Shown piece by piece: positions 54,728-57,373 of a DNA stretch of 64,000 nucleotides. Made by a program: the position numbers and the translations under genes. Origin of the DNA: Chitinophaga pinensis (GTDB lineage Bacteria > Bacteroidota > Bacteroidia > Chitinophagales > CAMDFR01); NCBI GenBank assembly GCA_945897725.1, contig CAMDFR010000013.1, positions 2,969 through 66,968 on the forward strand, written 5' to 3'. A model generated the notes under the pieces. The model was not told the DNA's origin, ran no database searches, and was given only the letters and a program-made list of their open reading frames with translations. How positions within the stretch are numbered: the first letter of the stretch is position 1; each line of letters begins with the position of its first letter.

Positions 54728-54827
54728 AAAGTTGCAACAAGCTACGATATTCATCATGCTTCGTATAAATCAAGAATGACAGAAAAAGCTATCTTTGTTC
54801 AGCTCTAAATAGGCATTCAATCATATT

Positions 54828-56030
54828 ATGTTATTCAGTAATTATTTACTCTTTATCTATATTGTTAGTTTCGTTGTTATCTACACGATGGCAAGGGCAT
54901 GTACAAAAAGTGTCCTGATTAGAAATGGATTGATTGCTATTGCCAATGTCTTATTATTGCTGAATCTGGTAAAGGAGCATAGCATTATCGTATTGGCTAT
55001 ATTGAGTTTGATTGTATATGTATTGGGTAGATTATTGCAGACAAAAAATTCAAAAGCATTATTGTCGTTCTCGCTCAGTTTGATTATTTTTTTGTTCATT
55101 GTACGCAATTATAGCGCTGTACAATCCTTGCTCTCGCATACCTTTCTATCCTTTGTAAATGCACCAATTTTATCTGTTCAGAAACTTGGACTATCCTATA
55201 TTTTATTTCGTTTTGTTCATTGGTTGATTGAATCATTCAAGCAAAAAATACAGAAGCCTAATTTCCTCACTTTTGTCAACTATATTTTATTCTTCCCTTC
55301 CATTTTAGCAGGTCCAATTGATACCTACAATAATTTTCAATATTGGATCGGAAAGTCAAATGCTTCCTATAGCAGATCGCTTTTCTTTGCGGGGATTTCC
55401 CGTATTTTTATCGGAGCACTTAAAACATTAGGATTGGTGCCATTGATCATTCATTATGCAACGGACTATAGTGTTTTTCCTGCGTCTATTCAGCCCTTGA
55501 TGGCCCTGTTTATGAGTTTGATTTGTTACTCTTTTTATATCTATCTAGATTTTTCTGGCTATAGTGATATTGCTATTGGTACGGCCTATTTGATCGGGAT
55601 TAAAACGCCAGAAAATTTTAATAATCCTTATCGTTCACAAAATTTATCTGAGTTTTGGAAGCGTTGGCATATCACCTTCTCAAGCTTTTTGCAGCGCTAT
55701 GTTTTTAAGCCCTTCATTCAATTGTTTAATATACTATTGCCATCCAAACATCGTTTGCTCATCACTATCTTAAGCTATCTAGCCACCTTCGTTATTTGCG
55801 GACTTTGGCATGGAGCCACTATCAATTTTGTGTATTGGGGTTTATGGCATGGCGTTGGTCTTTCTATCAATAAAATTTGGTTGATAAAAATGAAGCCACA
55901 TGTCGCCTTTAGTGCAAGCAAAACATATCACATCCTAAGTATTGTGCTAACCTTTTTGTATATAAGCATGGGATGGTTGTTTTTTCATTATTCATCAGCA
56001 CAACTCGTAAACATCTTTAAATTATTTTAA
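54828..56030 (+). CDS. MBOAT family membrane-bound O-acyltransferase, DltB-sized (400 aa)
   Basis: Polytopic protein with the MBOAT core NLSEFWKRWHITFSSFLQRYVF and the catalytic-His region CGLWHGATINFVYWGLWHG. Its stop overlaps the next gene's start (TAATG). Confidence 0.85.
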   Translation: MLFSNYLLFIYIVSFVVIYTMARACTKSVLIRNGLIAIANVLLLLNLVKEHSIIVLAILSLIVYVLGRLLQTKNSKALLSFSLSLIIFLFIVRNYSAVQSLLSHTFLSFVNAPILSVQKLGLSYILFRFVHWLIESFKQKIQKPNFLTFVNYILFFPSILAGPIDTYNNFQYWIGKSNASYSRSLFFAGISRIFIGALKTLGLVPLIIHYATDYSVFPASIQPLMALFMSLICYSFYIYLDFSGYSDIAIGTAYLIGIKTPENFNNPYRSQNLSEFWKRWHITFSSFLQRYVFKPFIQLFNILLPSKHRLLITILSYLATFVICGLWHGATINFVYWGLWHGVGLSINKIWLIKMKPHVAFSASKTYHILSIVLTFLYISMGWLFFHYSSAQLVNIFKLF

Positions 56031-57163
56031 TGAAGATTTTGCAATACATCTATAAAACAAGCACCCTAGCAAGCAATGGCATCTTTCTGTTGTTGATGGC
56101 GCTAATATTGATGTTGATAGGTCCTTTTCTTATTCCTGCTTATAAAGCGCAACATTTTAAGCAGCAGATTTTTACACTCAATGGTCTAGCCATTAAGTAT
56201 GATGATGATCCAGCAGTGTCAGATTTTATTTATTCCATAAAAAGCAATCATGGTTATTTATGTATGGGTACCTCAGAATCGAGTGATCTGGAGGGCGGCA
56301 ATTATTATAATTTTCTAAATGCTGATACCATGCTCCATAGTCGTTTCTCAATTTTGGCAGGGGCTGGAAGGACTTGTGGCATCTATATTCCATTGTTGTT
56401 GCAACATAGAGATGAAGTAGATTCAATGCAAATTATTTATCTCATCAATCCTGCCTATTGGCGGACAGATTTATGTGAAGTAAATATGGAGTATTGGAAT
56501 CGTTATACGAATAATGCGATGATTCATCATTTGAAATTAACTGAGAATGAAAATCAAGAATATTTCAAACCTGTGCAGGCCTATTTAACAAAACTGAATC
56601 TATTTCAACGAACAGTATTTAGCATAGACTATGAATTGCGAAGCCTTAGAAAATCCTATTTTCAAGATTTTAGGTATTTGCTGAATGATAAAGATTATAA
56701 AAAGAATTTAAGTTTTATACCTACACAAAAAGCACCTCTTTCTACTTATCCTAGCTTCGGACAAATAGATGCTGTGGCCATTGACACGAGTTGGAATTTG
56801 CTTCGTACTTTTCACAATCAAGCATGGTTTAAACCCATTCAAAAAGATAGTAAATATCGGTATGAAGAATTGAGTTCCTTTATTGAATTATGCAAGCATC
56901 TTGGTATCAAAGCCACCTTTGTAGTTGGTCCTTACAATGGACGTTTTATAACAAAGTATGATAAAAAATCTTTGGCAGCTTATGAAGAAACTTGTCAGCG
57001 AATTAAAACATTATTGATTAACAAGAAAGCTGATTTTATAGATGCCACCGATATTTCCTTTGTGGCTGGGGCATTCAACGATCATCAACATCATTCTAGT
57101 TATGGTGCTTATCTTCTTTATCTAAAAATAAAATCTCATATCAATGAAAGTCATGCTGATTAA
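56030..57163 (+). CDS. DltD-like (SGNH/GDSL-type) extracytoplasmic acyl transferase partner of the MBOAT
   Basis: N-terminal TM anchor (GIFLLLMALILMLIGPFLIP). Candidate nucleophile block CMGTSESSDL (compare GSSE in DltD). C-terminal Asp/His block AFNDHQHHSSYGAY. The 377-aa length and the gene order match DltB-DltD. Homology is inferred from motifs only. Confidence 0.5.
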   Translation: MKILQYIYKTSTLASNGIFLLLMALILMLIGPFLIPAYKAQHFKQQIFTLNGLAIKYDDDPAVSDFIYSIKSNHGYLCMGTSESSDLEGGNYYNFLNADTMLHSRFSILAGAGRTCGIYIPLLLQHRDEVDSMQIIYLINPAYWRTDLCEVNMEYWNRYTNNAMIHHLKLTENENQEYFKPVQAYLTKLNLFQRTVFSIDYELRSLRKSYFQDFRYLLNDKDYKKNLSFIPTQKAPLSTYPSFGQIDAVAIDTSWNLLRTFHNQAWFKPIQKDSKYRYEELSSFIELCKHLGIKATFVVGPYNGRFITKYDKKSLAAYEETCQRIKTLLINKKADFIDATDISFVAGAFNDHQHHSSYGAYLLYLKIKSHINESHAD

Positions 57164-57164
57164 A

Positions 57165-57257
57165 ATGCTTGGTAAAATTATGTTGATTGTCTTGCTAGTT
57201 TTCTTGCTGATGTATGTGAGTACAGAGGATATTCCTTATTTGTATGCAGGATTCTAG
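57165..57257 (+). CDS. 30-aa transmembrane microprotein with a DltX-like C-terminal Tyr hexapeptide (candidate acyl shuttle)
   Basis: The ATG lies 1 nt after the stop of 56030..57163. It encodes MLGKIMLIVLLVFLLMYVSTEDIPYLYAGF*, one hydrophobic helix followed by a short acidic tail ending Y-L-Y-A-G-F at the extreme C-terminus. It is below the 60-aa cutoff of the ORF track. Confidence 0.4.
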   Translation: MLGKIMLIVLLVFLLMYVSTEDIPYLYAGF

Positions 57258-57362
57258 CGAGGAGGCTTATAGCCTGAGCAATAGTAGCGACATCCTTTTT
57301 TGATTGTCTTTTTCAAAAAAGATATAGCGAATAGTGCGACCACGCCTAGCGTGGGCAGGCCA
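57256..57362 (+). repeat. GC-rich multi-hairpin intergenic element, copy G
   Basis: AGGCT-tat-AGCCT, then GTAGCGAC-ATC-C-TTTTTTGA-ttgtcttt-TCAAAAAA-GAT-ATAGCGAATAG, then CCACGC-cta-GCGTGG. Fills the gap between the convergent micro-ORF and MBL-fold genes. Confidence 0.65.
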
Positions 57363-57373
57363 TCATCAAAAAA

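Follow-up and report, generated by a model that had tools for sequence, protein, structure and literature searches.

We analyzed a 64,000-nucleotide stretch of Chitinophaga pinensis DNA (the window; assembly GCA_945897725.1, contig CAMDFR010000013.1, hereafter C13), in which three genes on the plus strand, at 54828 to 57257, encode a putative acylation module. The first gene (54828..56030) encodes a short, 400-aa acyltransferase of the MBOAT family, and the second (56030..57163) a transmembrane (TM)-anchored, DltD-like protein of 377 aa. The two are joined by the sequence TAATG at 56028-56032, in which the MBOAT stop codon TAA (56028-56030) and the ATG start of the second gene (56030-56032) share one base. 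The original prediction, made from the nucleotide sequence, described these two open reading frames (ORFs) as a DltB/DltD-like module lacking DltA and DltC, and the ORF listing together with direct reading of the sequence agreed with the sizes, order, and overlap that it gave. Both genes thus stand, but the unit is a trio: translation revealed an unannotated micro-ORF of 37 codons (57144..57257, plus strand), absent from the text of that prediction although its stop codon coincides with the end of the span, 57257. The start of the micro-ORF overlaps the stop of the DltD-like gene by 20 nt, and its product is a DltX-like microprotein.

The MBOAT protein matched the Pfam MBOAT family with E = 2.8e-30. 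It also matched the NCBIfam DltB equivalog model TIGR04091 over its full length with 205.9 bits, below the curated cut-off of 375. Two long MBOATs encoded elsewhere in the same genome scored 149.5 and 160.3 bits on this model, so the affinity of the window protein to DltB appears real, with a modest excess over generic MBOATs. Pairwise comparison gave a similar picture, with 135-149 bits against canonical DltB vs about 120 bits against the fused-type MBOATs, which puts the window protein marginally nearer, by sequence, to canonical DltB. Among sequences in the PDB, DltB (6bug/8jem) was the only match (E = 1e-29), and in the alignment His336 and His289 of Streptococcus thermophilus DltB correspond to His328 and His281 of the window protein. 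The motifs noted earlier are present, namely WKRWHITFSSFL at residues 277-288 and WHG at 327-329 and 340-342; His328 (within WHG) and His281 (within WKRWH) are invariant across 25 family members and are the predicted catalytic residues. The AlphaFold2 (AF2) model (mean predicted local distance difference test, pLDDT, 83.8) was matched best by DltB structures (E = 1e-12, TM-score 0.74-0.77), followed by eukaryotic MBOATs with E = 1e-6 or weaker. The protein thus combines the DltB fold with the two histidines.

Variants of this gene were observed in several related loci. In L070 and L072-L076, the MBOAT is longer by about 240 aa at its C-terminus, and the added part looks like two repeated domains; this extension fills the 700-bp gap between the MBOAT and DltD-like genes in these loci, where a carrier protein gene had been considered and was rejected. 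In L066 (10001-11200), a single ORF spans the DltD-like and microprotein frames, and the MBOAT is broken into two pieces, which is probably an assembly or frameshift error in a metagenome-assembled genome (MAG) and not a natural fusion.

For the second protein, family models gave a fainter signal than structure. Pfam DltD (PF04914) matched with 27.5 bits (cut-off 22.7), covering only residues 269-359, and NCBIfam TIGR04092 yielded 19.3 bits against a cut-off of 150. Profile-profile comparison with two canonical DltDs (hhalign) extended the similarity to 298 columns (95% probability, E = 3.7e-8), pairing the GTSE motif with DltD block I and the D-x-Q-H motif with block V. The AF2 model (pLDDT 89.4) includes an N-terminal helix at residues 2-34, and the top 12 Foldseek matches were all DltD crystal structures, aligned over the full length (about 360 columns) with E from 5e-10 to 3e-7; other SGNH folds were far behind, with generic esterases from E = 2e-4 and PatB at 2e-3. 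The protein accordingly displays the SGNH core with a helical insertion, the N-terminal TM anchor, and the Ser/Asp/His residues that characterize DltD. The expected GTSES (residues 80-84) and D-H-Q-H-H (351-355) blocks were both found. Across 25 homologs, G80-T81-S82-E83, the G111-A-G-R-T115 block (G111 through T115), N140-P141, D351, Q353, and H354 are invariant. We consider this protein a probable DltD-like SGNH-type acyltransferase with the predicted triad Ser82/Asp351/His354. These comparisons support the placement of the pair as DltB/DltD-like, not AlgI/AlgJ-like, given that DltB is the sole PDB relative of the first protein by sequence and its best relative by fold, and DltD occupies the top 12 folds of the second.

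The microprotein, MKVMLIKMLGKIMLIVLLVFLLMYVSTEDIPYLYAGF, consists of a basic N-terminus, a single TM helix, an acidic linker, and the C-terminal motif YLYAGF. All 66 evaluable related loci have an equivalent micro-ORF that overlaps the DltD-like stop codon or lies just after it, and the same arrangement of three genes was seen in three further metagenome loci (L009, L011, and L012). The small gene was left uncalled by annotation in L010, L011, and L080. Conservation is concentrated at the C-terminus: among 66 unique sequences, Tyr at position -4 and the terminal Phe at -1 are present in all 66, I/V at -8 and L/I/V at -5 likewise in 66/66, and D/E at -9 in 65/66; position -6 is Y, C, T, or F. 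The start at 57144, yielding 37 codons, is to be preferred on comparative grounds because the closest ortholog (L013) has a Met only at position 1. FxYxxF is the acyl-shuttle motif of bacterial MBOAT systems, in which its tyrosine accepts the acyl group from the MBOAT and hands it on to the serine of the SGNH enzyme (PMC12148441). In the trio, a single-pass microprotein that ends in such a motif with an invariant tyrosine is encoded together with the MBOAT and the DltD-like enzyme; it is a candidate DltX-like acyl shuttle, with Tyr34 as the predicted acyl carrier. This peptide extends the analogy with Dlt beyond the sizes and order of the genes to the proposed mechanism.

The two long MBOATs of the same genome serve as an internal control. 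Their lengths are 482 and 476 aa and their C-termini FIYFQF and FFYFQF; the next gene in each case encodes a TM-anchored SGNH-like protein (the pairs lie outside the window, at C2:5448-7900, adjoining nucleotide-sugar genes, and at C18:32612-35010). In MBOATs of this type, the motif FxYxxF terminates two extra C-terminal TM helices. The window MBOAT, unlike them, lacks a fused shuttle motif: it stops at 400 aa with ...LVNIFKLF, ending NIFKLF, and the motif resides on a separate peptide. This contrast within one genome, read from the sequences, supports the shuttle role suggested for the microprotein.

When one genome per species was scanned for relatives of the DltD-like protein, 67 loci were found. 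The MBOAT gene is directly upstream in every one of these (67/67), which upholds the predicted co-occurrence of the two genes, and the trio persists as the identity of the DltD-like proteins falls from 77% to 27%. Neither the family placement of the two proteins nor their co-occurrence in related genomes contradicted the original prediction. The hosts are mainly Flavobacteriales, rumen and other Bacteroidales, Crocinitomicaceae, Cryomorphaceae, and Saprospiraceae; five of the 67 loci are labeled Bacillota. All 67 are labeled as MAGs or uncultured isolates, and no cultured strain was seen among the source names of the protein matches. Automatic labels on these genes read "DltD" and "AlgI". The trio was found in none of 400 sampled genomes of the phylum (0/397 high-quality ones) and in one of four congeners. 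Insertion boundaries could not be drawn within the genus, where one congener is syntenic and the three that lack the trio are rearranged. When all ORFs of 100 aa or more in the 10 kb around the 67 loci were clustered, nothing beyond the trio recurred except among close relatives. The trio behaves as a rare, patchily distributed, self-contained accessory cassette of Bacteroidota.

The components that supply the acyl group in the Dlt pathway do not accompany this cassette. Profile searches and tblastn detected no AMP-binding or PP-binding genes on contig C13, and for 63 of the 67 loci, a tblastn search out to 10 kb yielded neither an adenylase nor a carrier gene. In 26 of 50 trio-bearing genomes, the DltA hidden Markov model gave no match at E<=1e-30, and many of the matches in the remaining genomes are modules of nonribosomal peptide synthetases (NRPS). 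A DltC carrier loaded by DltA, the hallmark of the Dlt pathway, is thus missing from the contig and from the surroundings of nearly all loci, and about half of the genomes offer no DltA to load it. The claimed lack of DltA and DltC holds for the surrounding region, indeed for the whole of C13, but not genome-wide: in the genome under study (2.59 Mb, 50 contigs, 84.7% complete), a DltA-like and a DltC-like gene are present on contig C20. This genome encodes five carrier domains, without a single orphan among them: AcpP, an NRPS/polyketide synthase carrier, two acyl carrier proteins located among beta-ketoacyl-synthase-like ORFs (as read from the ORF list only), and the DltC-like protein of C20.

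Comparison with characterized systems brings out what is distinctive about the trio. The resemblance to the Dlt pathway (DltX, A, B, C, and D), which D-alanylates teichoic acids in Gram-positive bacteria, is extensive and includes an MBOAT of about 400 aa with the same two histidines, a TM-anchored partner with the DltD fold, and a separate one-helix microprotein ending in xYxxF; DltB and DltD rank first in the sequence and fold comparisons, and the mechanism that we draw on is that described for this pathway (PMC12148441). The trio differs in that its operon lacks DltA and DltC, which are often missing from the genome altogether, in the scores of its MBOAT and DltD-like proteins, which stay well below the equivalog cut-offs, and in a microprotein that Pfam DltX misses. 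The gene order is B-D-X vs X-A-B-C-D, the hosts are mostly diderm Bacteroidota, which are free of teichoic acids, and the first position of the motif is Y, C, T, or F instead of an invariant F. PatA/PatB and the AlgI/AlgJ/AlgF/AlgX systems likewise combine an MBOAT with a periplasmic SGNH protein, form an acyl-Tyr intermediate within FxYxxF, and use acyl-CoA as the donor with no carrier protein; however, in these systems two additional TM helices of the MBOAT itself carry the motif, and a DltX-like microprotein is lacking (PMC12148441). The trio departs from these systems in its short MBOAT with the motif on a separate peptide, and the fold match of the DltD-like protein to PatB is weak. Pathways outside the Dlt type lack both the carrier protein and the DltX-like microprotein, whereas Dlt has both (PMC12148441), and the trio breaks this pairing, having a separate shuttle peptide without DltA and DltC, mostly in diderms.

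We consider it likely, by analogy with these pathways, that the trio constitutes a split MBOAT-microprotein-SGNH acyl relay of the Dlt type, probably fed by acyl-CoA. The parts list, the conservation, the folds, the catalytic residues, the motif, and the lack of linked DltA and DltC are observed, and from them we infer the following chemical steps. The MBOAT would take an acyl group from a phosphopantetheine thioester on the cytoplasmic side, and its His328 would pass the group through the tunnel of the protein onto Tyr34 of the microprotein, the C-terminal YLYAGF of which would sit on the periplasmic face. The acylated tyrosine peptide could then swing to the membrane-anchored DltD-like enzyme and acylate Ser82, and this enzyme, on the outer side of the inner membrane, would join the group in ester linkage to a hydroxyl on an envelope molecule. 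The most likely donor is acyl-CoA, with acetyl-CoA being the simplest choice, because the module brings no dedicated ligase or carrier of its own and half of the trio-bearing genomes lack an amino-acid adenylase. MBOAT/SGNH systems other than Dlt use acyl-CoA (PMC12148441).

Several observations weigh against this reading of the trio or against its choice of donor. The Pfam DltX model (PF12459) gave no match to four trio microproteins at E<=10. The same model recovers the canonical DltX of genome G045 with 53.3 bits (the DltX of genome G006 scores 18.1 bits), and because it detects the former and misses the trio peptides, the latter appear to be functional analogs of DltX and at best very remote homologs. 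Because MAGs are incomplete, the number of genomes lacking DltA is overestimated. To our knowledge, the only characterized short member of the DltB type uses a carrier protein, not CoA. In the genome under study, the C20 cluster (C20:2936-11141, minus strand, outside the window) contains parts of a carrier-dependent acylation system, with a DltA-like adenylase (501 aa; TIGR01734, 274 bits) adjoining the DltC-like carrier (82 aa). Complete dlt-like operons, each comprising genes for a carrier, DltD, a DltX-like micro-ORF, DltB, and DltA, are present in addition to the trio in two genomes, G006, a Bacteroidota MAG (L090:3125-7376), and G045, labeled Bacillota (L089:6468-10845). Finally, three loci in Bacteroidales MAGs encode, directly after the micro-ORF and on the same strand, a didomain protein of 598 aa with adenylation and peptidyl carrier protein domains (A-PCP), followed by an LpxL-family (PF03279) acyltransferase (L023:2007-4723, L030:8230-10937, and L037:5959-8696). 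HlyD/RND-type efflux genes follow this pair in L037 and, as judged from the ORF clusters, in L023.

These observations are the basis of the main competing explanation, in which the donor is a carrier protein encoded elsewhere, such as the C20 pair, the housekeeping carrier AcpP, or an A-PCP protein, and the trio performs a true Dlt-like aminoacylation of a component of the diderm envelope. A short DltB-type MBOAT with a separate microprotein is indeed the design of the carrier-dependent Dlt pathway, and the adjoining A-PCP and PF03279 genes recall AlmE/AlmF/AlmG of Vibrio cholerae, in which a DltA-like adenylase, a carrier, and an LpxL-family acyltransferase modify a lipid of the diderm envelope with glycine. 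The Alm system, however, operates on the cytoplasmic side and does not require an MBOAT, an SGNH enzyme, or a microprotein, and neither the window nor most trio loci contain the A-PCP/PF03279 pair. The carrier explanation has to contend, too, with the 63 of 67 loci that have neither an adenylase nor a carrier nearby and with the 26 of 50 genomes that have no DltA-type match. The C20 pair lies beside a plausible partner of its own, a membrane protein of 848 aa. This protein has no Pfam or NCBIfam match, but a stretch of about 60 residues is MBOAT-like, if divergent (pairwise E = 8e-5, with WRRTN in place of WxRWH), and the SGNH-like motifs GGSYESG and DFHPN can be read by eye in its C-terminal half. 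The genes that follow it encode the DltC-like carrier, the DltA-like adenylase, an acyl-CoA dehydrogenase, a Trp-halogenase-like flavoenzyme, and a second ANL enzyme, and the cluster looks self-sufficient. An ORF pair alongside it resembles an ATP-binding cassette transporter in appearance. The dlt-like operons of G006 and G045 likewise have their own DltB, DltD, and DltX: their order is dltC-D-X-(A/B), and their DltX peptides end in EFVYQQF and GFIYNDF (the 49-aa DltX-like ORF of G006 lies between dltD and dltB). That locus L019 and the DltA-like gene of G006 lie on one contig was considered and rejected, as the lengths of the two contigs differ and tblastn was negative. Because the complete operons occur in the same genomes as the trio, the latter is, in sequence terms, a distinct paralogous system. 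The G006 operon therefore shows that complete Dlt-type operons occur in Bacteroidota MAGs, and the argument that a diderm host excludes Dlt chemistry was too simple, given that some trio-bearing members of the phylum hold such an operon as well. On balance, we regard donation by a carrier protein as unlikely, but as the most serious competitor of the acyl-CoA-fed relay.

Two other explanations concern the function of the trio itself. The trio could be a decaying dlt remnant that lost dltA and dltC along with its function: its genes are some of those that make up dlt, the complete operons of G006 and G045 likewise have D followed by X, and the distribution is patchy. Decay is hard to reconcile with three frames that stay intact in dozens of species, down to 27% identity, or with the invariance of the His/His pair, the Ser/Asp/His triad, and the Tyr and Phe of the shuttle, a signature of purifying selection, and we consider this explanation extremely improbable. 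It is slightly less so, although still highly doubtful, that the DltD-like protein is an esterase or editing hydrolase, or that the pair acylates a small molecule or a lipid and not an envelope polymer. Many SGNH enzymes are hydrolases, and generic esterases of this group appear among the secondary fold matches; moreover, no glycan or lipopolysaccharide genes are linked to the trio, and an LpxL-family lipid acyltransferase adjoins it in three loci. Yet the DltD fold is matched over the full length, with E-values of 3e-7 or better as against 2e-4 or worse for other SGNH proteins, and an enzyme that always occurs together with an MBOAT and a shuttle peptide is more likely to transfer acyl groups than to hydrolyze esters.

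The flanks of the trio agree with the description given in the original prediction, with a pentapeptide-repeat gene upstream and a hairpin element downstream. The pentapeptide-repeat gene recurs only in the syntenic congener and did not emerge from the clustering of neighbors of the related loci. The downstream element (57258..57373, no strand assigned) is real and structured, with a minimum free energy of -29.4 kcal/mol, and occupies the space between the trio and a convergent gene for an MBL-fold protein. Partial copies of 46-55 nt with 87-93% identity are present on contigs C11 and C3 of the same genome, and in the syntenic congener the element is not conserved (a gap in the match); it is outside the acylation module. 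It probably belongs to the small hairpin repeats noted elsewhere in the window. Upstream, TATCTTTG (54790..54797, plus strand), read from the sequence 31 nt 5' of the MBOAT start, fits TAnnTTTG, the consensus of the -7 element in Bacteroidota promoters. An accompanying -33 element was not seen, and we regard the match as a weak candidate, a possible promoter of the trio. A scan for sigma-70 promoters and terminators returned fewer matches than in shuffled sequence.

If confirmed, the acyl-CoA-fed relay would imply that the split design, with the shuttle on its own peptide, is general and portable. Some gene callers would then be missing a 37-aa gene, and the labels "DltD" and "AlgI" would be misleading. 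The cassette would also provide a compact three-gene system for asking what determines donor choice in bacterial MBOATs. More tentatively, and with somewhat less than even confidence, we suggest by analogy that this is a split microprotein relay untied from D-alanine and teichoic acids, which is fed by acyl-CoA, decorates a Bacteroidota-specific envelope molecule, and spreads as a three-gene cassette. Candidate acceptors would then be lipid A or lipooligosaccharide, capsule, an O-glycan, or a membrane lipid, and the resulting change of the cell surface may alter susceptibility to cationic peptides, lysozyme, or phage.

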